Assembly (NCBI GenBank): GCA_047605165.1
Contig: JASGGG010000006.1
Location: 23-64,022, forward strand
Length of the DNA: 64,000 bases
Direction: 5' to 3'
From: Nocardioidaceae bacterium
GTDB lineage: Bacteria; Actinomycetota; Actinomycetes; Propionibacteriales; Nocardioidaceae
Below are positions 20,649 through 60,782 of this stretch, piece after piece. Under the pieces are notes generated by a model. That model was not told where the DNA came from, made no database searches, and saw only the letters and a program-made list of their open reading frames with translations. Position 1 is the first letter of the stretch, and the number at the start of each line of letters is the position of its first letter. A program made the position numbers and the translations under genes.

Positions 20649-20732
20649 GCGCGAGTGGCGGAATAGGCAGACGCGCACGGTTCAGGTCCGTGTGCCCGAA
20701 AGGGCGTGGGGGTTCAACTCCCCCCTCGCGCA
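20649..20732 (+). tRNA. tRNA-Leu(CAG), long variable arm
   Basis: GCGCGAGTGGCGGAATAGGCAGACGCGCACGGTTCAGGTCCGTGTGCCCGAAAGGGCGTGGGGGTTCAACTCCCCCCTCGCGCA, with anticodon loop TT-CAG-GT. Confidence 0.92.
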
Positions 20733-20753
20733 CGCGAAGGCAAGACGGTGGAA

Positions 20754-20850: not shown

Positions 20851-22134
20851 ATGGCTTGGATCACCAAGCGCAAGCGCGCCGACGGCGGAGTCTCGGTGAC
20901 CGTCGTGTGGCGCCACGGAGGCGCGCGTGACGGCGCCTACCAGTCCGAGACTTTCGGGGCGGGCAGCGATGCCCAGAACCTCGCGCGTGCCGATGGCTTC
21001 AAGAAGATGGTCGACGCGGCTGGCCAGCGCTGGCCGGACGGCTGGGTCCGAGGTGAGGGCTTCGTCCGTCCGCCCGGCGAGACCGACCCGATGAAGACGC
21101 CACCGAGGTTCATTGACGTCGGTGAGAAGTACGTCCGCCAGATCGTCGATCTCTCGCCGGGCCAGCGCAAGAAGTACCTGGGCAACCTCCGGGTCCTGGA
21201 GAAGACCAAGGTGTCAGGGTCGTACGTCTTCACCCGGCCGGTCTCCGCGATCACCGAGGCTGACCTGAAGGCGTGGCTGATCGAGTGGGACAGGTCGCTG
21301 AAGACGAAAGCCAACTACCACGGCCTGATGCACGGCATCTTCGCCTACGCCCTCAAGCAGGGTCACCTGACGTCGAACCCGGCGATCGGGACCGCCCCGA
21401 AGCAGTCGCGGGTCAAGCAGTCACGACCCGAACTGCGGTTCTTGACGGAGAAAGAGCTCGGCCGGGCTGCCGAGCTGGCGGGGAAATACGGCGACCTGCT
21501 CGCGGTCACCGCGGCCACGGGGCTGCGGTTCGGTGAGGTGAGTGCGCTGTGGGTCAAGGATGTCGACCTGGCCCATCGCACGATCCGGGTGAACAAGGCG
21601 TGGAAGGAGGAGGGAGACGACGGCGCGACCGATATTCCGGGCTGGCTGGCCAAGCAACTGCGGCCCAAGCACACGATGCGCGACCATTACCTGGGCAACC
21701 CCAAGACCCCGAAGTCACGCAGGACGATCACCATCCCGCCAACCATCGCCAAGGTGTTGGCCCAGTGGATGAAGGACAAGGCGCCCGACGACTTCGTCTT
21801 CACCACTAGAACCGGCCGGCCGCTGCACAACGCCGACTTCTACACCCACCACTGGTCGAAGCTGCAGAAGAAGCTGGAGGCCGAAGGGGTCGCACGCTTC
21901 CGGTTCCACGACCTACGCCACACCCACGTTGCCTGGCTGATCGCGGGCGGCGCTCCGCTCCCGCACATCCAGGCAAGGTTGGGACACGAGTCGATCACCA
22001 CCACCATCGACACCTACGGACACCTCCTGCCCGCTGGCGACGAGCTGATCTCCAGCATCTTGGAGGCCGCGCTGGCGGGCGAGACCATCCGGCCAGCGCA
22101 GGTGGGGAAGCCGAGCGCGAGGATGAGCGAATGA
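20851..22134 (+). CDS. int: tyrosine-type site-specific integrase
   Basis: The C-terminal catalytic region includes ...RFHDLRHTHVAWLIAGGAPLPHIQARLGHESITTTIDTYGHLL (R..H..R..Y signature elements). It is adjacent to a tRNA. Confidence 0.92.
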   Translation: MAWITKRKRADGGVSVTVVWRHGGARDGAYQSETFGAGSDAQNLARADGFKKMVDAAGQRWPDGWVRGEGFVRPPGETDPMKTPPRFIDVGEKYVRQIVDLSPGQRKKYLGNLRVLEKTKVSGSYVFTRPVSAITEADLKAWLIEWDRSLKTKANYHGLMHGIFAYALKQGHLTSNPAIGTAPKQSRVKQSRPELRFLTEKELGRAAELAGKYGDLLAVTAATGLRFGEVSALWVKDVDLAHRTIRVNKAWKEEGDDGATDIPGWLAKQLRPKHTMRDHYLGNPKTPKSRRTITIPPTIAKVLAQWMKDKAPDDFVFTTRTGRPLHNADFYTHHWSKLQKKLEAEGVARFRFHDLRHTHVAWLIAGGAPLPHIQARLGHESITTTIDTYGHLLPAGDELISSILEAALAGETIRPAQVGKPSARMSE

Positions 22135-23024: not shown

Positions 23025-23267
23025 TCAGAGCTTCGACCGCCGCCGGTCTCGCTGGAACGGCAGAAGCTGGGCCGTGACGGGCTGCTCGCAGGAGGTGATG
23101 AACTCGTCGAGGTATTCGATCTTGAATCGGATGTGCTTGCCGACCCTTGCGTGGCGGATCTTGCCGTCGCGGACGGCGTCGGCGACCCAGCGTTCGGGCA
23201 CGTTGAGGTACGCCGCTGCCTCGGCTGTGTCGAGCAGCGGTTGACGGGCTGGCGCGGGTGTGGCCAC
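23025..23267 (-). CDS. excisionase-type helix-turn-helix DNA-binding protein
   Basis: LLDTAEAAAYLNVPERWVADAVRDGKIRHARVGKHIRFKIEYLDEFI is a MerR/Xis-like HTH_17 pattern. Confidence 0.75.
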   Translation of the reverse strand: MATPAPARQPLLDTAEAAAYLNVPERWVADAVRDGKIRHARVGKHIRFKIEYLDEFITSCEQPVTAQLLPFQRDRRRSKL

Positions 23268-24104: not shown

Positions 24105-27100
24105 TCAGAAGCCGATGCCCGGTCCCTGGCGGTCGGCTCCGGGGCCGTACGTTGGTATCGGGTCAGGGGCCTGTAGCCGGCGCCGGGCTGCGGCGTCGTG
24201 TTCGCGGGCTGCTCGCAAGCGTGCGGCAACACGAGCAGCTTCCTGGGCGGCTTCCCGGTCGGCGGCCCACTGGTCGTGTTCGGCATCCAATCGTCCGGCC
24301 GGGAGGACACGGATCTCGGGGGCGCGGGTGAGGGTGTGGACGCGCTGGTCGGCGACGCGCACCTGCGGGGCAAGCCTGTCGAGGTCGGCCTGGACCTGGT
24401 CCAGTAGTTCGGGCAGATCCGGGTGATAGGCCACCGGCGCGTAGGGCCGCAGCCTCGCCGCAAGATCGTCCTGGTCTGCGCGGAGCGCAGCCTTGGCGTC
24501 GTCGACGACCCGACCGGCGCTGCGGAGCCTTGCTCGGAGGAGTGGGGCTTCGGGGTGCGCCCGTGCGGTGGCGTGCTGTGCGACTTGGGTGATCGTGGCC
24601 TGGAGACGATCCCGCTCGCCGTAGCCGATCTGGCGGCGGACCTGCTCGGGGTCGCCGGATAGCTCAGGCAGAAGGGGCCGCCACTTCTCAGCCCACCTGT
24701 TGAGGACGTCGTGGGCATCGCGGACCTGGCGGCGGTGCAGCCCGAGTGGCCCGGCACCGTCGTGGATCGTCGTGAGGGCATCAGCGACGGCGGGCTGATC
24801 GGCGTTCCACCCTCGCCGCAGGTCGGCGATGGTGTTCTCGGTCTCTGCGGTCATGGCCGCATCCAGGTCCCGTACCGTCGACTGGATCCGGTTCAGCCGA
24901 CGGATCGCCCCGTCGAGGCGATGACGTAGTTGTGTCTGCCTGGGTGCGGATTCCTCGCGGATCGCGCGCACGGCTTCGGTCTGCTGCCGCTGCTGGTCGA
25001 GCCGCTCCCACCGGGTGGTGAGGTCGGCCCGGACCGTCCAAGCGGCACGGAGCCGGTCGAGCACGACGTCGATGGGTCGTTGGGGTGCGTACCGTTCCAT
25101 CTCTTCGGCGGCCTGCTTCGCTGCGTGGGCTGGCCCGAGGTCGGCACGGTCGTGGCCCATGACCTGGTCCCAGATAACGCGAGCTTGGTCTACGTCCTCG
25201 GCCACGATGTGGGCGATGTTGTTGTCGCGTCCGCGTGTCATCCCGACGTAGGCCGCCGAGGCCGACGTGGTCTCCGCGATCAGCATGTGCCCGGTGCTGG
25301 TCGTCTCGCCCTGGGCGCCGTAGACCGTGGTGGCGTAGGCCAGCTCAACCTGGGTCCGGGCGTACGACGCTGGCACGCTCCGGGCGGCGGCGAACCGTTC
25401 CCGCCCCGCAGGGGTCAGGGTGAGCGAGCCGTCCTCACCGACGGCGGCGACGGTCCACGAGTCGCGGTTGGCGACCCCGAGGTCGTGGTCGTTGAGTCGG
25501 GTCGCGACTCGATCCCCGACACCGATGCGCTCCCCAGCCTCGGTGAACACCACCCGAGTGTCATCGACCACGCCACTGGCGACACGCTGGTCACGGATGA
25601 TCCCGTTCAACGCCGCCACCTGGGCACGCGAGTCGGCTATCACCAACAGCCCAGAGCCTGCGCCGGGAGCTGATGCTACTTCTGCTGCGACCGCGTGCAG
25701 CCGCTCGACCTCGGAGGCATGGACGTGGATGTGGCCGCGGGCGAGGAGGGCGTCGAACACCTCCCCAGAAGCCTCCCCAACATGCTCACCAGACGGCTCA
25801 CCAAGTCTGGTCCCGCGGCGCATCGCCAAGGAGATCGCGGCATAGTCGGGCTCGGCGAAGCGGTGCACCACATCGAGTTCGACGACGGCCTCGGGTGCGG
25901 CCCATCGGGCTGCGAGGTCGAGTACGCCGCCGCGACCGACTGCGGGGAGCTGATGGCGATCCCCGACGAGCGCGATCCGGGCGCCGGTCCGGTCAGCGAC
26001 TTGGAAGAGGGCGTGAGCGGTGTCCTGGTCGAGCATGCCCGCCTCGTCGACGAGCAACAGGTCGCCCTTGCCGAGCGTGGTCGCGGGCGGCTGGGTCGGT
26101 TCGTGAGTCCCGCGGCCGTCGTCATCCCACCGCCAGCCGTACTCGTGCACCAGGGCCGCCACAGAGCGAGCCTCGGCAGCAGTCTTGGCGGCGACGTGGG
26201 CAGCCTTCAACGTCGGCGTCACCACGACCAGCCGGTGACCCTGCCGCTCCAGCAGATCCCGAGTCGCGGCCAGAGTCGTCGTCTTCCCAGCCCCGGCTGC
26301 ACCCTCGACCACCACCAGCCGTCCAATCCCCGCAAGGACAGCGACGGCGTCCCGCTGCGCTTGGTCCAGCCCGGCCAGCAACGACACGGACTGTGCTGGC
26401 TCGAGCCGACCGGCGGCGCGCTGGACCATCGCCGCGACCAGGTCGGCCTCGACCGCCAACACACGCAGCGAGGTCAGCGAGCGAACGTGCTCGGGCCCGC
26501 CCTGCTGATCCAACAGGGGCACACTCAGAGCGACGGCACGCGCGGTGATGTCCTCGGCCAACTCGATCCGCACACTTACCTCGGCGACCAGGCCGGTCGC
26601 GGCGATCCACTCCTCGACCCCGCCCCGGAGGTCCGCGGCATTCCAGGCCGACCTGGCTGCACCCAGCCGGGAGACCACAAGATCGGCCGCCCCGTCCCGG
26701 TCCAGCGACCCGACCGCCGGCCCCATGGGCGGGATCGGCAGACCGGGCTGCGCGGGGTCGCGGTAGCCAAGCTGGTGCAACACGGCATTCCACACCGCGA
26801 CCATCTCGGCCCCGTCCGGCACCACCGCGTGCTGCGGCCCGCTGGTTGAGTTCTGCTTCTGCGGCCGGGCCTCGGCCCACGCTCGCCGGTCCCATCCCTG
26901 CCGTAGACGTGGCCCGGGCTCCTCGCCGGGGTGGTCGGCGCGCCAATCGGCCTCGTAGCGGCCCAGGTTGCGCCCGATCTGCGCCGTACGCGCCGAGAAC
27001 TGGCCCACATACGGCGCCAGCTCGACTACCTCAGCCGTGGCGGGGTCCATCGTGAACCCCTGCGCCGCCAAAACGGCCCGGAACTCGGGGTCGGTGGCGA

Positions 27101-27702
27101 CCGCGGCGTGACCGATGCCGTTGATCGCCGCGACCATGTCCCGCACCCCGACCGAGTGCAGACCCCGCCACTTCCCCTCGGCGGACACCCTGGCGTTGAC
27201 CTGCAAGTGAAGGTGCCGGTGCGGGTCACCGGCACGGGAGGTGTAGTGCCGGATCACCGCCGCCTCGATCTGCTCCACTGGGACCTGGACCTGCCGGCCA
27301 CGCGGCCCGACTCGGGTCGTGGCGTGTTCGGCCAGCCAGCCGATGATCTGCTCCGCTGCCCGATCCTGAGCAGCATCCAGTGCCTCGGAGACCTCCGGAT
27401 GCAACGCCGCGGCCAGCGACCAGGTCTTGGGTCCGTTGACGGTGACCTCGACGAACCGCAACGCCTTGCCGTCGTCGCGAAGCCGGCCCTTCGCCTTGCC
27501 GGTGTCGACGTCGTAGCCGGCGACCCAGCGCTCGTAGGTCTCACCGTCCAGCTCACCCTGCCCGCGCGGCCGATGCGCCCGGTGAGGCGGTGTAGCGGGT
27601 CGCGACCCCTGAGCCCTCGGCCAGGTAGTAGTCGTCGGCGCGGGAGTGGTCGGCCTCGACGTAGGCCCGCGCCGCAGCCGCAGACCCGCGGTAGAACTTC
27701 AC
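24105..27702 (-). pseudogene. MobF/TrwC-type relaxase fused to RecD-like helicase (TraA-like), interrupted by one frameshift near 27553
   Basis: The N-terminal frame reads VKFYRGSAAAARAYVEADHSRADDYYLAEG... and stops at a TGA at 27553-27555. The adjacent frame continues ELDGETYERWVAGYDVDTGKAKGRLRDDGKALRFVEVTVNGPKTWSLAA...HRHLHLQVNARV. The helicase Walker A is EGAAGAGKTT. Confidence 0.8.
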
Positions 27703-28026: not shown

Positions 28027-28449
28027 CTAGTCAGCGAGTCGCACGACGGTGCACCCGGACAATACGGCGGATTCGAGGATCGCCATCGCCCCGTCGGAGA
28101 CGCAGAGATTGAAGGACTGGTCCAACCAGAAGTCAGAGCGTCCGGGTGCGCCGGTAACCTGAAGCCATCGGTAATCTCGGTGCTCGGCCTTCCCGTAGAG
28201 CTGTCGGTAGTTGTCGCTGGGTCGGACGGGGGCCTTCGTCAGCTTGAAGCCGTCCAGGTGGGCCTTCTTAAGTCGGGATCCGAGTTGGTCGCTCACGAGG
28301 AACACAGGGAACGACGTGATCAGCTCATCGGTCTCCGGTTGGTCCAGCACGTACTCGAGGCGCTTGACCTTCGGCGGGTGGGTGCTGGTGTCGAGGTCGG
28401 TGTCGGGGCCGAGTTCGCCGGCCACTTGGGGGTCGAGTCGGTAGGGCAT
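28027..28449 (-). CDS. candidate immunity protein for the upstream nuclease toxin
   Basis: This 140-aa cytoplasmic-looking protein starts 2 nt after the toxin stop. The arrangement is typical of polymorphic toxin-immunity pairs. Confidence 0.55.
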   Translation of the reverse strand: MPYRLDPQVAGELGPDTDLDTSTHPPKVKRLEYVLDQPETDELITSFPVFLVSDQLGSRLKKAHLDGFKLTKAPVRPSDNYRQLYGKAEHRDYRWLQVTGAPGRSDFWLDQSFNLCVSDGAMAILESAVLSGCTVVRLAD

Positions 28450-28451: not shown

Positions 28452-30404
28452 CTAGCCGATCTTAGGAGTGAAGAGGTGGCCGAACTTACGGTCGATCTCC
28501 GTGGCCTCGTTGAGGATGTCCTCACGAGTCGTCGATGATGCGGGATGGGTCTTGTAGAACTCGTCCCACGCCTTCCGAATGTCGCTCAGATGCAGCGAGG
28601 AATTCAGCTCGTTGGGGATGCCACGCAGGTTCTCGAGCGAGTGGATCTCCGAAGCCGTGAACTTGCCCGGGTACCGGGTGAGCACGCTCTGCTCGATTGC
28701 GTGGTGCACGACGACCTCGCCCTTGAGTTCGGGATTGGCCGCGAAGAACGTTGCCCGGTAGTTGGTGCTTGTAGCTTCGCCGACTGTCGCTCTGACGGTG
28801 GCGACGCTCCGAGCGGCTTCGGTCTCAGCCTTGACTACCGCGGCGCTCGGTCGTGCAGCCTCGGCGACCTTGGCCACGCGCACTGCCTCGGTGGCGACCT
28901 TGGCAGCCTTGGCGATCTTGGTGAAGGCGAGACCCGGGACGGCGGCGGCCAGCGAGAGGCCGGCTTCGGTGTAGTCGCCTTGGACGGTGTACCAGGTCGC
29001 GTTCGTCGCTGCAGCACCGATGCCGATGGCGTCGAAGGGCGGAGGAGCGAAGGTCGAGAGAGACAGGATGTCGAGCACGTTGTGACCCCAGTGCTCGATC
29101 CAGTGCCACAGCTCCTTGGCGACCGCGACGACGCAGTGCCCGTAGTCGAGCGGGTTCCAGGAACAGCCGCTCCCTTCCTTCATGCTCTTGGCCAGACCCT
29201 GCAGCACCTGCGAGTCGCCGAGCGGCGTGCCGCCGGCTGCCTCGGCCACGGCTTCGGTCACTCCGCCGGTCGAGTCGATGGCGGAGTTCAGGGCGGTGAG
29301 CGTCGCGGTCATCCCGACGTTGTTGCCGTCGGATGCGGTCGGGAAGTGGTGCTCGAAGAACAGGTAGTGGGTGAACTTTCCGACCGGGTGATCCGAGCCG
29401 TCGTAGGAGATGTTCTCCGTCCCGGGCTCGAAGTCAGTGAAGGCCCAGTCGCTCGCGGTCGGGTTCGAGGTGAGCGCCGCCGTCATGGCGAGCATGCCGT
29501 CGGTCAGGTAAGCCCCGTCAGGCGCGGGCGCATACTTCGCATCGTCCAGACGCGCCTCGGACCAGCCGTTGTCGCCGTGGGCTTGGTCGTACTCCGTGTA
29601 GGTCGTCGTCAGTGCCATTAGGAAGTTGTTCGACCAGTAGCCGCGGGAGATCAGCAGGAGCAGGTTCTGCTTGTTGGCGATGTCCTGGTCAGTGCGCTGC
29701 TTGGTGGCTGCGTCCGGCGGATCGGCGGACTCGCTGTACAAATCCGTCGGAGCGGTTGTCGCCTGGATAAGGTTGTCCGACCATGCCAGCGGGAGCGATT
29801 CATCGCCGGTGCCGTGAGTTGCTAAGGCCAGGGTCCCCGCAAGGTCGGTCAGGGTGTTCTCGTAGGCGGTTGTGTCAATGCCTGCCCGGAACGGCGTCGT
29901 GGTGCCGGCGACCGAAGCTAGCGCGTCGCCAAGCATGCGCGGGGTGGTCTGCGATGCGAAGAGGTAAGCAAAGTCGGGGCTACCGCGGTGGGCCGCGAGC
30001 TGCTTGTCGAGTGCCGCAAGGTCCGGCTTCCGGAGCGCCTTGACGGCCGCGGCTGCCTCGCGGTGGTCCTTCCACTGCTGATCGTGGAAGGTCGGGAGTT
30101 GCGTGTAGGCGATCGCGGCTCCCGCGATGATGGCCAGGATGATTGCCGTGGCCACCGCGGCGATCCATCGCGGTCGCTTCGGTTTGCTGAAGGTCAGGTT
30201 GGTCCGGCGCTTGTCGGGCTGCTCGTCGTCCAGCTTCCAGCACTTGGCCTCCCACCTGCCGACGACATGGTCGCGCCGGGAGTGGCGTACGCGCTTCGTC
30301 CTGAGGTTCTGTCGCGGGGTGCGCGAGGAGGCGCCGCCCTCACGGGCTGCGCGACTCTCTGGCCCAGCGGTTGTCAACTCTGCTTCTCCTGACGACTCCG
30401 TCAC
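28452..30404 (-). CDS. membrane-anchored polymorphic-toxin-like protein with C-terminal xHH-type HNH/EndoVII-fold nuclease domain
   Basis: A basic N-terminus is followed by one TM segment (WIAAVATAIILAIIAGAAIAY) and a domain of about 400 aa of unknown fold. A pre-toxin-like linker (GDYTEAGLSLAAAVPGLAFTKIAKAAK) precedes the tip, which reads EVVVHHAIEQ...ENLRGIPNELNSSLH (HH..N..H spacing). Confidence 0.6.
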   Translation of the reverse strand: MTESSGEAELTTAGPESRAAREGGASSRTPRQNLRTKRVRHSRRDHVVGRWEAKCWKLDDEQPDKRRTNLTFSKPKRPRWIAAVATAIILAIIAGAAIAYTQLPTFHDQQWKDHREAAAAVKALRKPDLAALDKQLAAHRGSPDFAYLFASQTTPRMLGDALASVAGTTTPFRAGIDTTAYENTLTDLAGTLALATHGTGDESLPLAWSDNLIQATTAPTDLYSESADPPDAATKQRTDQDIANKQNLLLLISRGYWSNNFLMALTTTYTEYDQAHGDNGWSEARLDDAKYAPAPDGAYLTDGMLAMTAALTSNPTASDWAFTDFEPGTENISYDGSDHPVGKFTHYLFFEHHFPTASDGNNVGMTATLTALNSAIDSTGGVTEAVAEAAGGTPLGDSQVLQGLAKSMKEGSGCSWNPLDYGHCVVAVAKELWHWIEHWGHNVLDILSLSTFAPPPFDAIGIGAAATNATWYTVQGDYTEAGLSLAAAVPGLAFTKIAKAAKVATEAVRVAKVAEAARPSAAVVKAETEAARSVATVRATVGEATSTNYRATFFAANPELKGEVVVHHAIEQSVLTRYPGKFTASEIHSLENLRGIPNELNSSLHLSDIRKAWDEFYKTHPASSTTREDILNEATEIDRKFGHLFTPKIG

Positions 30405-30552
30405 GACGGGGGCGAGGCTACTTCGATCCGCGCCCCTGGGTGGTCAGAACCTGATCGTCCGAAACGAACGGGCAGACCTTACGGCCGCAGGCCGACACAA
30501 ATCGTTTCACGGGACCGTCCGCCGCCGCCCGCAAGGGGGCAGGCAGACGGTC

Positions 30553-32208
30553 TCAGCGGAGCCCGAGGTGTTTGGCGACATCCTGGCCACCGACCGCGGT
30601 CACGACGTCGGGGTCACCGACAACGACCAGCAGATCGGTGGCGCGGGACATCCCGACGTAGAGGCGCTCGCGGGCGCGGTCGCGGGTGCCGTCTTCGTTG
30701 AGGCAGAGCACGACAGCGGAGCGTTCCAAGCCTTTACAGCCCAGGACGTGGCCGTAGAAGACCTCCTCACCGTCGAAGTAGTTGGCCCAGTAGCCCCGCT
30801 GGCCTTCCTGCTCCTGTTGCATGACTTGGGTCCAGTGCCGTGATCCTGTGGTGATGAGTGCGACCTGCCCTGGCTCCCAGCCTTCCTCGTCGAGTAGGCG
30901 GATGACCTGGTCGTCGGCGACCTCGACCGCATCGTGCACGGCGGCGGGCAGGAATCGGACCTCGGGTCCGGTTCCGCCGCGGGCGTACATCCGTGAGGGT
31001 GCGAGTGGGGCGAATGCCTCGGCGATCTGCCTGGTGTTGCGCAGGCAGTGATCGAGCACGAGCGGGACCAACGGCACGGGTGGGCGCCCAAAGCGGCCGA
31101 AGATGCGCTGATTCTCATCGGAGAACACGTAGAGGCCACCGTCGGTCTCGTCGCGCAGCGCGGCGATCAGCGGGGTCCACCAGGAGTCGGCGAAGTCCTG
31201 GGCCTCGTCGACGACGATGGCGTCGAACCGCTTGCCTTTGGGCAGTTGCCGCGCGAGTTCGGCCATGCGCCGCGGAAGCTCTTCTTCCCAGAAGGCTGAG
31301 GCGGCTCGGTCGCCGAATTCGGTCAGGCCCCACTCGGCGGCGAGTTCCTCGAAGGTTCCGACGAACGCGGGGCGGTCCTTCCTGGGCCAGGACGTGACCT
31401 GTCGTTTGAGGTGCTCGGCCAGCCCGATCGAGTAGCAGAGCAGCGCGGTGCGCTGGGCTTTGCGGTCGTGGCGGCCTCGGGTGAGCTCCTTGGCTTGCTG
31501 GAGCGCGAGCACTGTCTTGCCGCTGCCGGCGCCGCCACGGACCTCGACGCGGTTGAGCAGTCGGGTGACCGAGAGGATGAGGCTCTGCTGGTCGGTGAGC
31601 CGGTCGGCGGTGGCCTGCCGGTCGAGTGCTTCGGCGTTGACGTCGTAGGTCGTGGTCAGTCGTCCGCCGAGGATCTCGGCGAGGGCTTCGGTGTCGTCTG
31701 GGGTGAGGGTGCGGCGGTTGGTCTCCATGTCGTGGGCGTTGCGCCGTAGCCGGGTGATCAGGGTGGGTAGGTCGTCGCGGTCGTGCAAGGCGTGGCGAGG
31801 CAGGTCGGGCAGGTCCTGGGGCGGGAAGGTGCTGTACGGGACGACGACGCCGTGTGCCCAGGCGACTCGTCCTCGGCCGCCCCAGCGAGGGTCGGCCTCT
31901 ACGTAGCGTCGGATGGCGTGCTTGGCGTCGCGGGCTTGGTCGACCGGGTGGATCCACTTCGACTCGCCGGCGACGGTCTGGATCCAGCCGTCCTCGTACC
32001 AGACCGACGAGCCCTTGACCTCAAGCACGAGCACGCCGAAGTCCGGCATCACCACGATCAGGTCCGCTTCGTAGTCCCGGTTCTCGTCGGTGAGCCGGAA
32101 GTTGGCGAACAGCAGATCGTCTGGTCCGAGCCCGTTCCGTAGTCGCTCCCAGGTCTGCTGTTCGGAGTTGGTGGCGAACTGCGGGGATTCTGGGAAGAGC
32201 CTCACCAC
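30553..32208 (-). CDS. NERD domain fused to UvrD/RecD-like SF1 helicase/ATPase
   Basis: NERD motif ADLIVVMPDFGVLVLEVKG, Walker A GGAGSGKT, Walker B VVDEAQDF and C-terminal YVGMSRATDLLVVV. Confidence 0.8.
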   Translation of the reverse strand: MVRLFPESPQFATNSEQQTWERLRNGLGPDDLLFANFRLTDENRDYEADLIVVMPDFGVLVLEVKGSSVWYEDGWIQTVAGESKWIHPVDQARDAKHAIRRYVEADPRWGGRGRVAWAHGVVVPYSTFPPQDLPDLPRHALHDRDDLPTLITRLRRNAHDMETNRRTLTPDDTEALAEILGGRLTTTYDVNAEALDRQATADRLTDQQSLILSVTRLLNRVEVRGGAGSGKTVLALQQAKELTRGRHDRKAQRTALLCYSIGLAEHLKRQVTSWPRKDRPAFVGTFEELAAEWGLTEFGDRAASAFWEEELPRRMAELARQLPKGKRFDAIVVDEAQDFADSWWTPLIAALRDETDGGLYVFSDENQRIFGRFGRPPVPLVPLVLDHCLRNTRQIAEAFAPLAPSRMYARGGTGPEVRFLPAAVHDAVEVADDQVIRLLDEEGWEPGQVALITTGSRHWTQVMQQEQEGQRGYWANYFDGEEVFYGHVLGCKGLERSAVVLCLNEDGTRDRARERLYVGMSRATDLLVVVGDPDVVTAVGGQDVAKHLGLR

Positions 32209-33233
32209 GGCTCCGGAGCCACTTCGTGATGAGCGAGGAGGCGCTTGGCTAGACCTGGACCTTCGCTGACCAGGCCGGCGGGACGCAGGATGCGGGTCTC
32301 TGGCCCGGAGGCGAGGGTGATCAGGCCGACGCGCCAGCCGACCGGCTCCAGCAGGTCGACATCGACGGTGAATCCGTCGGCTGTGTCGGCGATGACCGCG
32401 CTGCCTTCGGCGTATTCATCGAGCGCCCAACGGGCGCGGTGGGGCAGCTGCACGCGGACGGTGGTTGTTGCGCGTTGCTCCCTGAGTAGTACCTCAGCGT
32501 CGGCGCCGGGCGCGAAAGTCTCATCGAGCACCTCCGCGTCGCGGATGTTGGAGACGAGGTAGGTGCGGAGCCTGCCGTTCGCGGTGACCGGCCCAGCGTC
32601 GACCTCCCAGCCTCGCACCGTCGTCTGCACGAGCCGCCAGGGTTCGATGGTGCGCTCGACGACCCCTGTCTCCCACTGTCGGGAGTAGCGGATGCGGACT
32701 TTGCGTCGCTGGGCCGAGGCTTGTTGTAGGCAGTCGAGGAACGCTGGGCGCCAGAGGTTGTCTGTGAGGGACTCGGTGTCGCCGCCCATGAGTGTCTCGG
32801 CGATGATCCAGACTGCGGATTCGAGGACCGGGTCGCCTTCCGGCGCTTGGAGGTCGAGGGCCGCGCTGGCGGCTGCGTGGATGAGGGCGAGCTCTCCGGC
32901 GTCGAGGTACTCGACACCGAGGTCCTGGGGCTCTTCCACGAGACGCACGACGAGCGCACTTGCGGGGTCGGCCTCGCGGTTCTCATCGTCTTCGGGGGCC
33001 TCGTCCTGCTCGTCGTTTGCGCCGGTCCATTCCAGGACTCGTCGGCGGGTCAGGCCCATCCAGATGCCGATGTCGGCCGCGTAGTAGGCGAGCAGGTCTT
33101 CGCGCAGCTCGTCGGCGTCGATGCCGCACTCATCGGCCAGCATTGAGAGCGGCACGCCGTCGGGGTGGGCGTGGAGTTGGTCGAAGACATCGAGCAATCG
33201 TGCGATGCGACGTACGTAGGACGGTGTGGCCAT
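32202..33233 (-). CDS. WYL-domain transcriptional regulator, PafC-like
   Basis: N-terminal wHTH (RRIARLLDVFDQLHAHPDGVPLSMLADECGIDADELREDL) is followed by an acidic insert. The WYL-type core reads VRIRYSRQWETGVVERTIEPWRLV, with a C-terminal extension. Confidence 0.75.
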   Translation of the reverse strand: MATPSYVRRIARLLDVFDQLHAHPDGVPLSMLADECGIDADELREDLLAYYAADIGIWMGLTRRRVLEWTGANDEQDEAPEDDENREADPASALVVRLVEEPQDLGVEYLDAGELALIHAAASAALDLQAPEGDPVLESAVWIIAETLMGGDTESLTDNLWRPAFLDCLQQASAQRRKVRIRYSRQWETGVVERTIEPWRLVQTTVRGWEVDAGPVTANGRLRTYLVSNIRDAEVLDETFAPGADAEVLLREQRATTTVRVQLPHRARWALDEYAEGSAVIADTADGFTVDVDLLEPVGWRVGLITLASGPETRILRPAGLVSEGPGLAKRLLAHHEVAPEPW

Positions 33234-33234
33234 C

Positions 33235-34143
33235 TCAAACGCCTGCCATCTCGCGCAGCTCGGACAGCATCTCCTCGCGGAAGTCCTCCGGACCGACGAC
33301 CTGGATTCGCTCGCCCAGCATGTAGAGCCGCGCGCGCATGGCGGCCCGGTGAGTCACATGATAGGTCAGCAGATGCGTGCCGCCCTCAGCGACGTGGCGC
33401 TCGGTCGGCTCTTGGAGCCACCGCACCACGTCGGGCAGGAACTCGTCCGGGACGGCGATCGTCACGTCGGTCGACTCATCGGCCTCCCAGCGCAGCGGGT
33501 GCAGGGCCAGTCGGCCGACAGGCTCGACCCGGTCCGCGGTACCGGCTTGTCCGAGGTGGACCTCGCTCATCCGAGAGACCACGAAGTGCTTCACCTCTGC
33601 GTGACCGTCTTCTCTGCCGCTGAGGTACCACTGGCTGTTCTGGTGACGCACGCTGGCCGGATGCACGATTCGGTCGCGGCCGTTGTAGCGGAATCGGATG
33701 AGCGCATGGCGCTGTACGGCACGCATCGCGGCATCGAGGTGCTCCAGCTCTTCCGGATGCTTGACCGCGATGTCGGGGACCGGCCGCACCGCCTCGGGCT
33801 CCAGCCCGAGCCGTAAAGCGAGGTCGCTCCGGTCTGCCAGGAGCGCGGTCCGTTGGAGCGCGGTCTGCTCGGCGGCGTTGAGCCGCAGGCGAAGCCGACT
33901 GTCGCCTGTGCGCAGCCGCCACACCGCGTCAGCGCGGGCAGGGGCGATGTTGTCGATCTGCCAGCCTTGGCTTCGCAGGTGCCGGAACTCGCGGCCCAGT
34001 GCGTCGGTGGAGTCGTTGGCGTCGAATCCCGCGATCCGCATCAAGGTCGCGGCCGGCACGCCACGCTCACCGGCGTCAGAGAGTACGGCCGTCAGCCGGA
34101 TGAGTCGCTCCATCGGCTCGCGCTGCTTCCGTCCCCGTGCCAC
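33235..34143 (-). CDS. WYL-domain transcriptional regulator, PafB-like
   Basis: ERLIRLTAVLSDAGERGVPAATLMRIAG...FRHLRSQGWQI is the HTH. The WYL core is LIRFRYNGRDRIVHPASVRHQNSQWYLSG. GTG start inferred at 34143. Confidence 0.75.
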   Translation of the reverse strand: MARGRKQREPMERLIRLTAVLSDAGERGVPAATLMRIAGFDANDSTDALGREFRHLRSQGWQIDNIAPARADAVWRLRTGDSRLRLRLNAAEQTALQRTALLADRSDLALRLGLEPEAVRPVPDIAVKHPEELEHLDAAMRAVQRHALIRFRYNGRDRIVHPASVRHQNSQWYLSGREDGHAEVKHFVVSRMSEVHLGQAGTADRVEPVGRLALHPLRWEADESTDVTIAVPDEFLPDVVRWLQEPTERHVAEGGTHLLTYHVTHRAAMRARLYMLGERIQVVGPEDFREEMLSELREMAGV

Positions 34144-34315
34144 AGGCCCATTCTGGCCGGTCGATCCCGCTCCTCGCAGACGTTCCAGGCGCCGGTCGGA
34201 CGCTCGACCGCGATTTGTGTCGGCAGCCGGCCCTACACCTATCCCCGACAACACCGACCGCGGCCAACGGGTCGCATCCGGCTCGACCGCGAGTCGTGCA
34301 CCAACGGAGGGCACC

Positions 34316-34669
34316 ATGTCTTACTCACAGCTTCCCCCGGCGCCTGATGGCGCCATCAGCAGCGCCCACAAGGGCAGCAACGGCCTCGCCGTCGCCGGGT
34401 TCGTCCTCGGCCTCCTGGGCCTGCTCGGCTCCTTCATCCCTGTCGTCAACATCGGCGCGATCGTGCTGGCCGTGATCGGCCTCGTCCTAGCCGGCATCGG
34501 CCTTGCGCGCTCGAAGTCGGCCCGAGGCGGCAAGGGTCTGGCCATCGCCGGCCTCATCCTCAGTGTCCTGGGCATCATCATCGCCATCATCATCGACGTC
34601 GCCGTCGGCAACGCCTTCCACAAGGCCACCAGCAACAGCGTCGACACCAGCACGGTAAAGACACCCTGA
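34316..34669 (+). CDS. DUF4190-type small membrane protein; stop codon supplied by the IS3 terminal repeat
   Basis: MSYSQLPPAPDG...GLAVAGFVLGLLGLLGSFIPVVNIGAIVLAVIGLVLAGIGL.... The TGA at 34667-34669 is the first three bases of the IS inverted repeat. Confidence 0.7.
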   Translation: MSYSQLPPAPDGAISSAHKGSNGLAVAGFVLGLLGLLGSFIPVVNIGAIVLAVIGLVLAGIGLARSKSARGGKGLAIAGLILSVLGIIIAIIIDVAVGNAFHKATSNSVDTSTVKTP

Positions 34670-34717
34670 ACCGCCCCGGCGTGTCCGGAGAGCTGATTCG
34701 TTGGAAGGATCACTCTC

Positions 34718-35041
34718 ATGTCACGACCCTCGAAGTACACCCCGGAGCTGCGTGAGCGCGCGGTGCGGATGGTGATGGAGTCTAGGCAGGATTATCCGCA
34801 CGAGGCCGCGGCGATCAGGTCGGTCGCGGGCAAGCTCGGGATCACCTCGCCCGAGTCGCTGCGCAAGTGGCTGCGCCAGGCCGAGATCGATGGCGGTACC
34901 CGTCCGGGGAAGACCAGTGAGGAGATTGCTGAGATCAAGAGCCTCAAGAAGGAGGTCGCCGAGCTTCGGCGGGCCAACGAGATCTTGAAGGCGGCCTCGG
35001 CTTTCTTCGCGGCGGAGCTCGACCGCCCCAACAGGTTCTGA
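34718..35041 (+). CDS. IS3 transposase OrfA (HTH/leucine zipper)
   Basis: MSRPSKYTPELRERAVRMV...ESLRKWLRQAEIDGG...EIKSLKKEVAELRRANEILKAASAFFAAELD. Confidence 0.9.
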   Translation: MSRPSKYTPELRERAVRMVMESRQDYPHEAAAIRSVAGKLGITSPESLRKWLRQAEIDGGTRPGKTSEEIAEIKSLKKEVAELRRANEILKAASAFFAAELDRPNRF

Positions 35042-35958
35042 TCGACTTCATCGCTGCTCACAAAGACGAGTTCGGGGTCGAGCCGATCTCTCGCGTGCTC
35101 GCTGAGCACGGGATCAAGATCGCCCCGTCCACCTTCTACGAGGCCGTCAGTCGGCGGCCCTCGAAACGAGTGCTCCGCGACGCTGAACTGGTCGCGCTGA
35201 TCGAGGCCGAGCGTGGCCGACAGAAGCTGATCGCGAGGTTCGGGGCCAGGAAGATGTGGCTCCACCTGCGAGGCAGGGGCCACGACGTCGCGCGGTGCAC
35301 CATCGAGCGGCTCTACCGCGAGCAGGGCTGGCAAGGCGCCCTGCGGCTGAAGAAGATCCGCACCACCATCGGCGACCCCGCGGCCGAACGGCCACTTGAC
35401 CGGGTCGACCGACACTTCTGGGCGTCGCGCCCGAACCAGCTGTGGGTAGCCGACTTCACCTACGTCGCGACCTGGGCCGGCACCGTCTATGTCGCGTTCG
35501 TCTTCGACGTCTTCAGCCGGCGGATCGTCGGGTGGAGGGCGGCCACCCGGATGACCACCGACCTGGTGCTGGACACCTTGGAGCATGCGATCTGGACGCG
35601 TCGCCAGCAGGGCGTCACCGACCTATCGGGACTCATCCATCACACCGATGCCGGGTCCCAATACGTCAGTTTCGCGTTCACACAACGTCTTGTCGACGAG
35701 GGCGTCGACCCGTCGGTTGGCTCGATTGGCGACGCCTACGATAACGCGCTCGCGGAGTCACAGATCGGGCTCTACAAGGCCGAGTTGATCCGACCCGAAG
35801 GCCCTTGGCGCGGGGTCGAGCATGTCGAACTGGAGACCCTGAACTGGGTCGACTTCTTCAACAACGAGCGCCCCCACGAGGCCCTCGACGACCTCACCCC
35901 GATGGCCGCCGAAGAACTCCACTACGCTGCAAGGAACCGGCTCAAGCCGACCGGCTGA
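35040..35958 (+). CDS. IS3 transposase OrfB (DDE integrase core), expressed via -1 frameshift from OrfA
   Basis: The -1 frame is open from about 35020 (..QQVLIDFIAAHKDEFGVEPISRVL..). Motifs: WVADFTYV, HTDAGSQYVS and YDNALAES. Confidence 0.85.
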
Positions 35959-36088
35959 GCCAAGAAACCCAGCCTCCGGAATCTCCGGGGCGGTTCAAGG
36001 TGACGGGCGTCGCCCGCTATCCGGCCGACGAGACAGGCACGCTTGCCGAGTGGGCCGCGTCCGAGCCCTGGCGTCTGCGTCCGCGCCA

Positions 36089-49514: not shown

Positions 49515-49952
49515 TCACCGGCCGCCGCGGCGACCGTCGAGCAGGGCGCGCACCTCGACCATCGCGGGGATCCCGCCCTCGCGCATCACCTCGAGTGGCG
49601 TACGCCCGCCGAAGACCGGGTTGGTGTTGGGCAGTTGGATCCACATCCGGGCGATCTCGGCTGAGTGGATCGCCTGCAGCGCGGTGTGGATCCCCAGCAG
49701 CAGCGAGGCGCGCGTGAGCCGGTCCACACCGAGATCGCGCGGCGGCCGGTTGCGCCAGGCATGCCAGGTGCTGGCGGAGACGCCGCCGAGGAGATCCTGC
49801 ATCTGCTCGGCGGTGAGCTTCCACTGGGTGGCCAGTCGGTGCATCGCCGTGACGGCGGCTGGTGTGAGCCGCACCCGGGTTGCGTCCTCGCGGAGGTCGG
49901 GCCACTCGCCGATCTCGTACCGGGTGGCCGGTGCCCGCATCTTCACTAACAT
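49515..49952 (-). CDS. Xre-type/DUF2384 antitoxin (MbcA/ParS-like)
   Basis: LTAEQMQDLLGGVSASTWHAWRN...RASLLLGIHTALQAIH...WIQLPNTNPVFGGRTPLEVM. Confidence 0.8.
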   Translation of the reverse strand: MLVKMRAPATRYEIGEWPDLREDATRVRLTPAAVTAMHRLATQWKLTAEQMQDLLGGVSASTWHAWRNRPPRDLGVDRLTRASLLLGIHTALQAIHSAEIARMWIQLPNTNPVFGGRTPLEVMREGGIPAMVEVRALLDGRRGGR

Positions 49953-49999
49953 GGCGCCTCCGATCTTGGACTAAGCATACTCCAGAATCAGAGGACTGG

Positions 50000-52111
50000 C
50001 TATCGTACCCCGGCCTCGAGCATCTGCCGCAACTCCTTCTTGAGCTCGCCGATCTCGTCACGCAGCCGGGCCGCGACCTCGAACTGCAACGCGGCGGCCG
50101 CCGCGTGCATCTGGTCGGTGAGCTGGTGGACCAGGTCGGCCAGGTCCGTGGACGGCAATCCCGCGAGACCGGAGTCCACGCCGTCGGTCGACCGCAGCTT
50201 CGGGGTCGGGGAGCCTGCCCTCTTGGGGTCGAGGTGGGACCAGGTCGCGATCAGCGCCTCGGTGTTCTCGTCCTCGCGGGCGAGCATCTCGGTGATGTCG
50301 GCGATCTTCTTGCGCAGCGGCGTCGGGTCGATGCCGTTGGCCTCGTTGTAGGCAATCTGCTTGGCGCGCCGGCGATTGGTCTCGTCGATGGCCGCCTCCA
50401 TCGAGTCGGTGATGCGGTCGGCGTACATGACCACCTGGCCCGACACGTTGCGGGCAGCCCGGCCGATCGTCTGGATCAGCGACTTCTCCGAGCGCAGGAA
50501 GCCCTCCTTGTCGGCGTCCAGGATCGCGACCAGCGACACCTCGGGCAGGTCGAGGCCCTCACGGAGCAGGTTGATGCCGACGAGCACGTCGAAGGTGCCC
50601 AGCCGCAGGTCGCGCAGCAGCTCGATGCGTTTGAGTGTGTCCACCTCGGAGTGGAGGTACTGGGTGCGGATGCCGGCCTCGACGAGGTAGTCGGTGAGAT
50701 CCTCGGCCATCTTCTTGGTCAACGTCGTGACCAGGACTCGCTCGTTCTTCTCGGTGCGCTCCCGGATCTCACCGATCAGGTCGTCGATCTGGCCCTTGGT
50801 CTGCCGCACGATCACCTCGGGGTCGACCAAGCCCGTGGGCCGGATGATCTGCTCCACGGCGTGTTCGACGCCGCCGATCCGGTCGAGCTCGTAGTCACCG
50901 GGCGTCGCCGAGAGGTAGATCGTCTGGCCGATGCGTTCGAGGAACTCCTCCCAGCGCAGCGGCCGGTTGTCCATCGCGCTGGGCAATCGGAAGCCGTGGT
51001 CGACCAGGTTGCGCTTGCGCGACATGTCGCCTTCGTACATCCCGCCGATCTGCGGCACGGTCACATGCGACTCGTCGATGACCAGCAGGAAGTCCTCGGG
51101 GAAGTAGTCAAGCAGACAGTTGGGCGCCGAGCCCCGGCCGCGGCCGTCGATGTGCATCGAGTAGTTCTCGATGCCCGAGCAGCTACCGACCTGCCGCATC
51201 ATCTCGATGTCGTAGGTGGTGCGCATCCGCAGCCGCTGCGCCTCCAGCAGCTTGCCCTGCCGCTCGAACGTCGCGAGCTGCTCGGTGAGCTCCGCCTCGA
51301 TACCGGCGATCGCCCGCTCCATCCGCTCCGGTCCGGCGACGTAGTGGGTGGCGGGGAAGATGTAGAGCTCGTTGTCCTCGGTGACGACCTCGCCGGTGAC
51401 CGGGTGCAGCGTCATCAGCCGCTCCACCTCGTCGCCGAAGAACTCGATGCGGACCGCGTGCTCCTCGTACACCGGGAAGACCTCGAGCGTGTCGCCCCGG
51501 ACCCGGAACGTGCCACGCGTGAAGGAGAGGTCGTTACGGGCGTACTGGATCTCGACGAGCCGGCGCAGCAGCTGGTCGCGGTCGTGCTCCTCCCCGACCC
51601 GCAGCCGCACCATCCGGTCGACGTACTCCTGTGGCGTGCCGAGACCGTAGATGCAGGACACCGACGCGACCACCACCACGTCACGGCGGGTCAGCAGCGA
51701 GTTGGTGGCGGAATGCCGCAGCCGCTCCACCTCGTCGTTGATCGAGGAGTCCTTCTCGATGTAGGTATCGGTCTGCGGGATGTAGGCCTCAGGCTGGTAG
51801 TAGTCGTAGTAGGAGACGAAATACTCGACCGCGTTGTTGGGCAGCAGCTGCCGCAACTCGGTGGCGAACTGCGCGGCCAGGGTCTTGTTGGGCTGCATCA
51901 CCAGCGTCGGCCGCTGCAGCTGCTCGATCGCCCACGCGATCGACGCCGTCTTGCCGGTACCGGTCGCACCCAGCAGCACCACATCCTGCTCGCCGCTGTC
52001 GATCCGCTCGGCGATCTCCGCGATCGCGGCAGGCTGGTCGCCCGACGGCTGGTAGTCGGAGATGACCTCGAAGGGCGCGATGCGGCGAGCGAGATCGGTG
52101 ACAGGCCTCAT
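50000..52111 (-). CDS. uvrB: excinuclease ABC subunit B
   Basis: [12 protein letters not shown]...[10 protein letters not shown]...DESHVT...with a C-terminal UVR motif. Confidence 0.97.
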
Positions 52112-52178
52112 GGCTTCGAGCCTACCGAGACACGGGGACAGTCCTGCCAGATCATCACCACCCCGTTAGGGTTCCTCC

Positions 52179-58872: not shown

Positions 58873-59013
58873 GCTCGCTTTCGCTTCGATCCGGTCGTCG
58901 GCGCCGGAAGCATCCAGTCTAGGACGTGGCGGGTCAGACCTCCCCTGATCAGCCGCGCAGCAGGTTCCGAAGCACGTACTGCATGATGCCCTTCCAACTA
59001 CTACACTAATTCT

Positions 59014-60498
59014 GTGACCACGAGCCGGACCAAGACCAGCGCTGCCGTCTACTGCCGCATTTCCAAGGACTCTACCGGTGAGGGCGCGGGCGTTGAACGG
59101 CAGCGCGCCGCCTGCATGGAGCTCGCGGCTTCTCGCGGCTGGTCAATCGATCCCGCCAACGTCTACATCGAGAACGACACCTCAGCCACCACCGGCAGGC
59201 GACCCAAGTACGACAGGATGATCGCCGCCGCCGAGGCTGGGAACGTCAGCGTCATCATCGCCTGGCACGTCGACCGCCTCACCCGCAAGGTGACCGAGAT
59301 CGAGGATCTCATCGCGCTATCGGAGCGCACCGGCGTCAAAGTGACGACCGTCTCCGGTGACCTCGACCTCACGACCGACAGCGGTCGCCTGGTAGGCCGC
59401 ATCCTGGCATCGGTAGCCCGCGGCGAGGTTGAGCGCAAGGGCGCACGGCAACGGGCAGCCAACCTCCAACGCGCCGAAGATGGCAAGCCACCACACACCG
59501 GCCGTGCGTTCGGGTACGACCTAGACGGCACCATCCGGCCCGATGAGGCCGAGGTCGTCCGCGAGCTCTACACGCGCTTCGCCGCCGGCGCTGGCCTGCA
59601 CACCTTGGTGACCTGGCTCAGCGACACCGGGCAACTCAACACCCGCGGCAAGGCTTGGACCAGGGCGGGGGTACGCGACCTCTTGCAAAACCCTCGCTAC
59701 ATCGCCGAGCGTTGGATCTTGCGCGGGTACGGCAAGGACCGTGTTCGCGAGTACGTCGGCCCAGGCGCCTGGGAGCCCATCGTCAGCGAGGACACGTTCC
59801 GCGCCGTGGCGTCGATCCTGGCCGAGCCGTCTCGACGCGAGAAGTACGGAAGGAACGGCAACGTGCGCAAGTATTGGGGAGCCGCCTGCTTCCGTTGTGG
59901 GGTGTGTGGGTCGTTGGTCAAGACGAACTACGGCAGCATCAAGCACAAGGACGGCAGCACCGTCGTCTACCGCAAGTACCTCTGTGCCGAGAAGTGGTGT
60001 GTCAGCAGGCGCGCCGACTACATCGACGAGTACGTCGAGGCCGTCATCTGCGCACGCCTCCGCGACCCGCGCATCGTCGCCGCGATGGCTACCGAGCAGG
60101 ACGCTGGCGCCGTGCGCAAGCTGCGCGACGAGGCCAACACGTTGCGCAGCCGCATCGATGGTCTAGCAGGCGACTACGCCGACGGGCTGCTGACGGCACG
60201 CCAAGTGAAGGTCGCTACCGATCGGGCTGAGGCACGCCTTCGCGAGGTCGAGTCCCGGCTCGCAGACCTCGGCTCGGCGAACGCGCTTGGCCAAGTCGTC
60301 GGAGCCACCGACCCCGCCACGGCTTGGCTTGCCCTCGACCCCGAGTCCCGAGCGAGCATCGCCAGCGCGCTGTGCACGGTGTACCTCGACCGTCAGCCGC
60401 GTGGTCGGCGTCCGTCCGACCGCAACCCCGAGAAGGTCGCGGAGTGGACCGAGAAGATGACGAGCACGATTCGTATCGAGTGGAAGGGAGCGCCGTGA
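59014..60498 (+). CDS. large serine recombinase (phage-type integrase)
   Basis: [11 protein letters not shown]...GVERQ...[12 protein letters not shown] is the resolvase catalytic domain. It is followed by the recombinase domain, a Cys-rich zinc ribbon (CFRCGVCG...CAEKWC) and a coiled coil. Confidence 0.92.
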
Positions 60499-60782
60499 AG
60501 CTCCTACTGAAGGTGGTCTGCGGAAAGTGTGGCAACAAGATCGGTGAGGTGTACGCCGACGGAGGCGACTTCCACTATCGCCCCCAGTGGCCGACTATGC
60601 CTGCCGGTGACGATGGACCGATAGCCCGGGCGTCGAAGCAGGACTCTTTGACCTCCGGCCGATTCTGGTGCCTAAGGCACGGCTGGACCAACGCGACGGA
60701 GGTAGATGCTGCTGCCCGCGAGGCAGGCGGCACCCAAAGAGGCAAGACACTCCGAGCGCATGTAACTCCAACCGGTCACTAG
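60495..60782 (+). CDS. small hypothetical protein with CxxC motif
   Basis: [20 protein letters not shown].... Its GTGA overlaps the recombinase stop. Confidence 0.45.
   Translation: MKLLLKVVCGKCGNKIGEVYADGGDFHYRPQWPTMPAGDDGPIARASKQDSLTSGRFWCLRHGWTNATEVDAAAREAGGTQRGKTLRAHVTPTGH

Follow-up and report, generated by a model that had tools for sequence, protein, structure and literature searches.

PafBC, the paired WYL-domain regulator of Mycobacterium smegmatis and M. tuberculosis, activates transcription by an unusual mechanism, sigma adaptation, and controls about 150 repair genes. It is encoded by adjacent paralogous winged helix-turn-helix (wHTH)-WYL-WCX genes, PafB then PafC, and its canonical operon is tightly tied to the pafA/Pup-proteasome locus (PMC6789036). 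The PafBC motif found in vivo, tGTCgg(N10)tA(N3)T, combines a -26 element with a canonical -10 and no -35 (PMC8635444). Single-stranded DNA (ssDNA) has been shown to be the WYL ligand of PafBC (PMC11804915) and is reported to be that of SiwR, DriD, CapW and BrxR as well. DriD of Caulobacter and SiwR of M. smegmatis are WYL-WCX activators that sense ssDNA and switch on few nearby genes, with DriD inducing a small membrane division inhibitor and SiwR binding a -26 region; BrxR and CapW are ssDNA-responsive, homodimeric single-gene repressors that head accessory or defence operons on mobile islands. Here we describe a 64,000-nucleotide (nt) stretch of a Nocardioidaceae bacterium (assembly GCA_047605165.1, contig JASGGG010000006.1, positions 23 to 64,022; hereafter the window), in which a PafB-like/PafC-like gene pair on a mobile island shares an operon with a NERD-superfamily 1 (SF1) nuclease-helicase gene and is flanked by conserved PafBC-type promoters that face a polymorphic toxin gene and a membrane-protein gene. 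The explanation that we tentatively favour, and to which we give somewhat short of an even chance, is a regulatory cassette that moves horizontally and has a divergent PafBC paralogue at its centre; this paralogue would activate the flanking promoters, with the helicase as ligand generator or co-effector. The cassette differs from PafBC-type WYL activators in being mobile, in having its own local regulon, apparently the toxin and the membrane protein as opposed to the many repair genes of PafBC, and in being coupled to a nuclease-helicase.

The initial annotation had reported three minus-strand open reading frames and read them as a single operon, and on both points our analysis agrees. The PafB-like wHTH-WYL-WCX gene (WYL-A, 33235-34143), the PafC-like WYL gene (WYL-B, 32202-33233) and the nuclease-helicase gene (30553-32208) all appear in the open reading frame listing of the window. 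A single nucleotide separates the WYL-A stop from the WYL-B start (the junction reads GTT TGA G ATG GCC), and the GTG start of the helicase overlaps the WYL-B stop by 7 nt (CCG TGG TGA over GTG GTG AGG, sharing GTGGTGA). Equal junction geometry is found in Nocardioides dubius (8992/8994 and 10007/10001) and in Logan contig L086 (4460/4462 and 5466/5460), and the GTG start of WYL-A at 34143 is backed by the peptide ARGRKQREP, which is conserved before MERL in orthologues. For the WYL operon itself, a scan with the sigma-70 consensus gave no site resembling a promoter. What the data do not bear out is the proposal that these three genes form the whole unit and that its sensor gates a nuclease-helicase effector: two PafBC-type promoters, a DUF4190/DUF5067 gene and, mostly, a polymorphic toxin gene also belong, the helicase shares its transcript with the regulators, and the promoter boxes face other genes.

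These boxes emerged from a repeat scan, in which a 25-nt inverted repeat was found to bracket the operon exactly, with a 13-nt core, GATTTGTGTCGGC, identical in both copies. Read outward, the copies give TGTCGG, 10 nt and then TAAGGT on the toxin side or TACACC on the DUF4190 side, the promoter type of PafBC placed right beside the cassette genes. Box 1 (GATTTGTGTCGGCAGCCGGCCCTACACC, plus strand, 34212-34239, motif 34218-34239) lies 98 nt before the DUF4190 gene, which it faces, and is divergent from WYL-A, and box 2 (GATTTGTGTCGGCCTGCGGCCGTAAGGT, minus strand, 30476-30503, exact motif 30476-30497) lies between the helicase gene and the toxin gene, faces the latter and is the sole strict tGTCgg-N10-TAnnnT match in 64 kb. 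The core TTGTGTCGG is invariant in 9/9 cassette loci, the distance from the box start (TGTCGG) to the DUF4190 ATG is 98-99 nt in the five loci with both located, and in L086 the toxin gene is preceded by the same box. There are 14 occurrences of the pattern TGTGTCGG-N10/11-TA in the 50.7 kb of cassette DNA and 5 in 1.42 Mb taken from other actinobacterial loci, an enrichment of roughly 80-fold, and distant WYL pairs (at most 54% identity) show 5 boxes within 200 nt where 0.29 would be expected. Further PafBC-type boxes were noted in N. dubius (L084, at 4852, 13661, 20351 and 20419), preceding AdnAB-like PDDEXK genes, a gene for a 1143-aa MkoA-like RNaseH/AAA helicase, an ADP-ribosylglycohydrolase-DSPc gene and one for a DUF4352 protein; the surroundings of the cassette seem to harbour a cluster of such damage-type promoters, placed on genes of the conflict type.

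The co-occurrence that the initial annotation had anticipated extends to at least seven further loci. The WYL pair, the helicase and a DUF4190 gene, mostly with the toxin, are present together in the window and in L084, L086, L089, L085, L088 and L170, and L172 retains only toxin and helicase. Two gene orders were found. In type 1 (the window, L084 of N. dubius, L086 and L089), a divergent DUF4190 gene is followed by WYL-A, WYL-B, helicase and toxin; in type 2 (L170, L088, L085 and, partly, L172), the order is toxin, helicase, a divergent gene for a protein of about 215 aa, WYL-A, WYL-B, a divergent 68-aa gene and the DUF4190 gene. Type 2 boxes stand before the ~215-aa gene, divergent from WYL-A, and before the 68-aa gene, such that in both orders an opposite-strand box lies at most about 100 nt from the WYL-A start and faces either the DUF4190 gene (type 1) or the ~215-aa gene (type 2), the exception being L085, which is without the ~215-aa gene. 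Boxes of one cassette have a common flank, which reads GGC(A/C) in type 1 cassettes and GGGGG in those of type 2. Two copies show damage of their own, with the helicase split by a frameshift in L170 (11886-13534) and a transposase occupying the expected position of the WYL pair in L172 (3953-5275), and from this we conclude that cassette copies decay.

Elsewhere the cassette is accompanied by an integrase and excisionase (Xis) or by conjugative modules, with TraG, ArdC and ParB in L085 and L088, and in the window it shares its island with an integrase, an Xis-like gene and a relaxase. These contexts are what would be expected if the pair served the life cycle of its element, sensing ssDNA that arises from damage or from TrwC rolling-circle intermediates and tuning excision, transfer or establishment, with the helicase assisting transfer or replication; in other integrative conjugative elements, induction of transfer by DNA damage is well known. 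We nonetheless hold this to be very improbable, given that no box was found to precede any of the int, xis and relaxase genes of the window, that the genes behind the boxes encode a toxin and membrane proteins, and that the transfer modules of the carrier elements are unrelated, with no integrase or conjugation gene called within 10 kb of the cassette in N. dubius.

Profiles built from orthologues of WYL-A and WYL-B and run against the PDB place the two proteins in the two halves of PafBC, in order, in agreement with the PafB-like/PafC-like assignment first made from their layout. Profiles were needed, as a single-sequence search with WYL-B gave zero matches and one with WYL-A matched only DriD-type WYL proteins. 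The WYL-A profile aligns with residues 6-319, the PafB half, of the Arthrobacter aurescens PafBC fusion 6SJ9 (8e-12) and also matches the M. smegmatis PafB chains of the RNA polymerase complexes 7P5X and 9FND as well as DriD structures (about 1e-09). The WYL-B profile aligns with residues 348-385 and 475-652 of 6SJ9, the PafC half (2e-05), with M. smegmatis PafC (7p5x_AX, 1.4e-03) and, weakly, with BrxR (E 0.015). Pfam calls WYL (3e-10) and WCX (9e-07) in WYL-A and WYL (7e-09) in WYL-B, where neither WCX nor HTH is called. WYL-A precedes WYL-B, the B-then-C order of PafBC, wherever the contig includes upstream sequence (about 60 of the 83 related loci scanned).

Similarity to the mycobacterial proteins is remote, however, with E values of 3e-04 and 1e-03 to the M. 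smegmatis chains, and neither the Pup ligase gene pafA nor proteasome genes were found in the 64-kb window, a separation that the initial annotation had also pointed out. On these two grounds the pair is, by sequence, best called a divergent PafBC paralogue. Beside cassette copies in other loci, pafA and proteasome genes were likewise not found, and unlike PafBC the pair stands off the Pup-proteasome locus, on a mobile island and in an operon with a nuclease-helicase. It also differs from DriD and SiwR, which are single-gene homodimers and for which no helicase or toxin partner is described. WYL-B relatives at 45-55% identity belong to chromosomal Nocardioidaceae pairs and carry the IMG name 'proteasome accessory factor C', and several chromosomal pairs at about 50% identity share an ABC-DUF3618-Cpn10-penicillin amidase context without pafA. 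Among related loci, a metagenome contig (L163, 3333-7058) carries two WYL-A/WYL-B pairs in tandem, and L097 has, 1.2 kb upstream of a WYL pair at 50% identity, a gene (~2684-3250) for a NERD-only protein of 189 aa.

The third protein of the operon had been described as a NERD domain fused to a UvrD/RecD-type ATPase. The fusion is well founded, with Pfam NERD (PF08378) at 6e-11 and 43.3 bits against a cut-off of 22.1 and all of the quoted motifs present (DLIVVMPDFGVLVLEVKG, GGAGSGKT, VVDEAQD and YVGMSRATDLLVVV). The ATPase belongs to SF1 but is not clearly UvrD-like: the UvrD-helicase model scores 25.9 bits against 23 and UvrD_C_2 falls just short of its cut-off (26.8 against 27.4), and the best Foldseek folds for an AlphaFold model (predicted local distance difference test score, pLDDT, of 74) are SF1B-like, namely Schlafen 11/14, Upf1, IGHMBP2, Dna2 and RecD, with TM-scores of about 0.3 and E values down to 1e-12. 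A single-sequence PDB search with the helicase gave zero matches. The model thus indicates a nuclease plus SF1B layout, as in Dna2 and Schlafen, which the top Foldseek matches share. Set beside Schlafen 11/14 and the end-processing nuclease-helicases Dna2, AdnAB and RecBCD, the cassette enzyme differs in the low TM-scores, in an identity of 13-17% and in having NERD, and not a Dna2 or Schlafen nuclease, as its nuclease domain. None of the NERD residues D49/E63/K65, Walker A, DEAQD and motif VI varies among 15 orthologues, and with its D/E-x-K, Walker A/B and motif VI residues thus preserved the helicase looks fit for catalysis.

A NERD-SF1 enzyme on a mobile island could be an anti-phage or anti-plasmid defence that degrades invading DNA, with the WYL pair as its regulator in the manner of BrxR and CapW for BREX and CBASS. 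PADLOC models of NERD-helicases do match, namely RTasNERD-Hel (reverse transcriptase-associated, UG34; 1e-29, residues 43-271 only) and the candidate C3a187 'NERD+UvrD' (5e-22, partial), together with fragmentary GajB matches (2e-08 or weaker) and a match to Nhi at E 7.6e-04; like Nhi, C3a187 and UG34, the cassette protein joins an N-terminal PD-(D/E)xK-type nuclease to an SF1 ATPase. NERD domains are reported to be enriched in defence islands (PMC9226505), WYL regulators are common companions of defence systems (PMC9122601), the neighbourhoods of the helicase family are hypervariable, as is typical for accessory or defence genes, one copy adjoins ARPP-1, ADP-ribosyl glycohydrolase and REase-ARP conflict genes, and HEPN, GmrSD and MkoA-like genes ride with the cassette on mobile elements. 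Nevertheless, we rate defence as unlikely. The PADLOC matches are partial and the partners are not present: no reverse transcriptase was found in the cassette or its neighbours, as a DRT/UG34 system would have, and the flanking genes (toxin and WYL-B) are not OLD-family nucleases, with GajA of Gabija not found. The Nhi match is negligible, covering only the 40-residue Walker A stretch (residues 204-244). Moreover, the pair is PafBC-like, that is, a -26-reading activator with an activator-type promoter architecture, unlike the homodimeric repressors of the BrxR/CapW type, and the conserved boxes face membrane-protein and toxin genes and not the helicase. PADLOC found no recognised defence system downstream of the WYL pair and none that covers the pair, the helicase and the extra cassette genes, and our literature search found no link of PafBC with a NERD helicase or polymorphic toxin, consistent with the earlier view that this is not a named system. 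Searches of plasmid and phage collections were uninformative, giving only proteobacterial and Thermomicrobium plasmid matches at 27-31% identity and one unannotated phage contig at 44%.

The toxin module next to the operon, also recognised from the outset, consists of a polymorphic toxin gene (28452-30404, minus strand) and a 140-aa immunity-like gene (28027-28449, minus strand) that abuts its stop. The toxin, presumably secreted, has 650 aa, with a conserved N-terminal part of about 480 aa that contains one transmembrane (TM) helix and a variable C-terminal part of about 170 aa. Its 157 homologues cover 57-99% of the query, have only the N-terminal 60-80% in common and end in exchanged C-termini such as PF14410, PF15650 and PF15649 (GH-E, Tox-REase-9 and Tox-REase-7); the C-terminal 170 aa of the window's own toxin match nothing in Pfam or NCBIfam. 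An AlphaFold2 model (pLDDT 70) has a helix at 79-102, and Foldseek of this model against the PDB returned nothing below E 0.1. The 140-aa protein matches the phage protein family phrog_32682 (4e-24), has no Pfam or NCBIfam match and, by its position, is presumably the immunity protein; that an immunity gene accompanies the toxin speaks against a role of the latter as effector of abortive infection. No functional name was obtained for the ~215-aa, 68-aa, DUF4190 and toxin proteins from PADLOC, PHROGs or NCBIfam.

In SOS-induced bacteriocins such as colicins and pyocins, toxin, immunity and release genes are under DNA-damage control. The cassette resembles them in that, on a mobile element, promoters of the DNA-damage type stand before a toxin gene with its immunity gene and before the gene of a small membrane protein, and it differs in that its regulator would be an element-borne PafBC-type activator instead of the host LexA and in that its toxin is an actinobacterial, TM-anchored polymorphic toxin.

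The sequences establish what the parts are, that they are linked and that PafBC-type promoters are present and conserved. By analogy with PafBC, DriD and SiwR (PMC8635444, PMC11804915, PMC10693628), the pair would be a ligand-switched activator of the flanking promoters. According to the cassette explanation that we favour, WYL-A and WYL-B would form a heterodimer, and a nucleic-acid ligand, most likely short ssDNA, would fill its WYL/WCX tunnel. As in the sigma adaptation of PafBC, the ligand-bound heterodimer would then dock on RNA polymerase-SigA at -35-less promoters in which a -26 TGTCGG stands 10 nt before TAnnnT. The two flanking promoters would drive the outward genes, the DUF4190/DUF5067-type membrane protein on one side and the polymorphic toxin with its immunity protein on the other. 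The least certain step concerns the translationally coupled NERD-SF1B helicase, which, we speculate, may bind to the ends of DNA, to damaged DNA or to foreign DNA and free ssDNA fragments that activate the pair, comparable to end processing of the AdnAB/RecBCD type, and which might also act on such DNA directly. An ssDNA-supplying helicase would fit its co-translation with the regulators and its Dna2-like layout. The net outcome would be that genotoxic stress, invading DNA or the DNase attack of competitors leads to production of toxin and membrane factor.

If this wiring holds, sigma-adaptation activators could be modular, mobile switches, there would be a testable model for the origin of the ssDNA signal of WYL sensors, and sensing of genotoxic stress or invaders would be linked to interbacterial toxin production in Actinomycetota; the small, conserved set of promoters and genes offers a compact experimental system. 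A stronger version, which we regard as improbable though worth stating, is a self-contained, transferable 'alarm-and-retaliate' circuit: the NERD-SF1B enzyme would turn broken or foreign DNA into short ssDNA, the breaks perhaps being due to a phage, an incoming plasmid or a competitor's DNase toxin, a private PafBC paralogue would read that ssDNA, and by sigma adaptation it would fire element-specific -26 promoters that yield toxin and membrane factor. Were this true, a sigma-adaptation activator would for the first time be seen as mobile cargo with a signal generator dedicated to it, and an actinobacterial polymorphic toxin would for the first time be placed under control of the DNA-damage type.

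Several observations weigh against the cassette explanation. The PafB WYL residues required for ssDNA binding are R181, Y196, R204, R208, R211 and R214 (PMC11804915). By alignment to 6SJ9, in which R181 and R204 have no confident counterpart, WYL-A appears to retain these only in part: it keeps the WYL motif as W172-Y173-L174 and R214 as R191, but R208 is replaced by K185 and R211 by an invariant valine, V188. WYL-B carries L226 and N229 at the positions of PafC R201 and R204. In the PafB HTH, R46 and R50 read the GTC guanines (PMC8635444), and R51 of WYL-A aligns with the first of these arginines, with R54 and R57 near the second position; the recognition helix is, however, four residues shorter than that of PafB, with the deletion running across the R50 position. 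On the promoter side, the -10 of the DUF4190 promoters ends in C or A (TACACC, TAGACC, TACACA) instead of T, and N. dubius also has a box ahead of its AdnAB-like genes. PafBC of the host probably recognises this motif too, and a host factor could therefore serve the box promoters.

These points bear on an explanation in which the flanking promoters belong to the PafBC regulon of the host, with the element tapping the host DNA-damage response as SOS-controlled colicins do, and the element-borne pair acting as a competitor, repressor or timing device or having another target. The fit of the box to the general actinobacterial PafBC consensus, the similar boxes before AdnAB-like and other genes of N. 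dubius and the altered WYL-A recognition helix with its lost key arginine would all be accommodated. Yet in either architecture box and pair are closely linked, box flanks are uniform within each cassette, and boxes are enriched beside distant WYL pairs of the same family, and we consider control by the host factor distinctly unlikely.

The distribution of the helicase raises a second set of objections to our favoured cassette. More than 2,800 helicase relatives exist, and 80 relative loci at 47-68% identity, from Nocardioides, Terrabacter, Mycolicibacterium, Dietzia, Blastococcus and others, were searched with tblastn, which shows no WYL pair beside the helicase in any of them. No neighbour gene is conserved among these loci, the neighbourhoods being hypervariable, and a PafBC-type box stands upstream of helicase relatives in just 2/82, so that the family is not generally a member of the PafBC regulon. 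The link between helicase and WYL pair is thus confined to one subclade, in which the conserved cassette suggested by the initial annotation does exist, whereas it does not extend to the wider family; by the same token, the helicase does not generally need a WYL partner, and its solitary relatives imply that it can work alone. In L094 (WYL-B at 76% identity), no helicase was found in the 1.4 kb downstream. A solitary orthologue in Nocardioides aquaticus (L001/L002, 1431-9266) lies beside ARPP-1, ADP-ribosyl glycohydrolase and REase-ARP genes, which make up an NAD/ADP-ribose conflict system, followed by an HD-domain gene.

Taken to its extreme, this pattern would mean that helicase, WYL pair and toxin are independent and co-travel only through a shared cargo region, to which the solitary state of most helicase homologues, the lack of a helicase near most WYL pairs of at most 54% identity and the occurrence of toxin homologues without the pair (L171) would all be agreeable. 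We give such uncoupled cargo the barest of chances, since the stop/start overlaps are conserved between loci, the gene set survives rearrangement into a second order, and the cassette helicases form the closest group (77-87% identity, versus at most 70% for the rest with known context), and a cassette surrounds each relative of 77% identity or above for which the context was readable.

The mobile-island setting put forward by the initial annotation is borne out. On the left side of the cassette, a tRNA-Leu(CAG) gene called by ARAGORN (20649-20733, plus strand), likely the integration site on the attL side, is directly followed by a tyrosine integrase gene (20851-22134, plus strand; Pfam Phage_integrase 6e-24), and farther on come an HTH_17 Xis-like gene (23025-23267, minus strand; Pfam HTH_17 3e-13) and a TrwC/MobF relaxase-helicase (24105-27698, minus strand, a stop-to-stop frame; Pfam TrwC 6e-46 and AAA_30 9e-42; NCBIfam MobF 1.6e-30, above its cut-off). 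The TrwC domain begins at about codon 47 of the stop-to-stop frame, upstream of the first listed ATG/GTG/TTG (27461), and the relaxase gene may have an unusual start or damage at its 5' end. A search for attR as a direct repeat of the tRNA-Leu 3' end gave nothing, either exact down to 12-mers or as 22-mers with up to five mismatches, apart from one unrelated 12-nt chance match at 55303.

On the right side lies an IS3-family element (34662-36002, plus strand) with inverted repeats, HTH_Tnp_1 and rve domains and an ALIL frameshift RNA at 34999-35127. With no attR and this element at its right edge, the island has an undefined right border, and because neither a target-site duplication of the element nor a downstream attR is visible, an IS-mediated deletion may have removed the right end. 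The IS3 element is not part of the cassette but disrupts it, cutting the DUF4190 gene (34316-34669, plus strand), which encodes a membrane anchor, after 117 codons, so that the window's copy of the cassette is damaged; DUF4190 relatives have about 272 aa and often a DUF5067 ectodomain. The 5' untranslated region of the DUF4190 gene is conserved in the window (34240-34315) and at the equivalent place in L084-L093, L153 and L170. A short hairpin in it, GRCUCG-N4-CGAGYC, could be an RNA element or an operator; as a candidate RNA element it was rejected as too weak, with one compensatory and three G-U changes in nine sequences.

Two further loci of the window lie farther to the right. An Xre/MbcA/ParS-type antitoxin gene (49515-49970, minus strand), presumably adjoining its RES/MbcT-type toxin partner, is found near uvrB (50000-52165), and a second mobile element at 58987-62980 encodes a large serine recombinase and a D5_N/DUF5906 primase-helicase.

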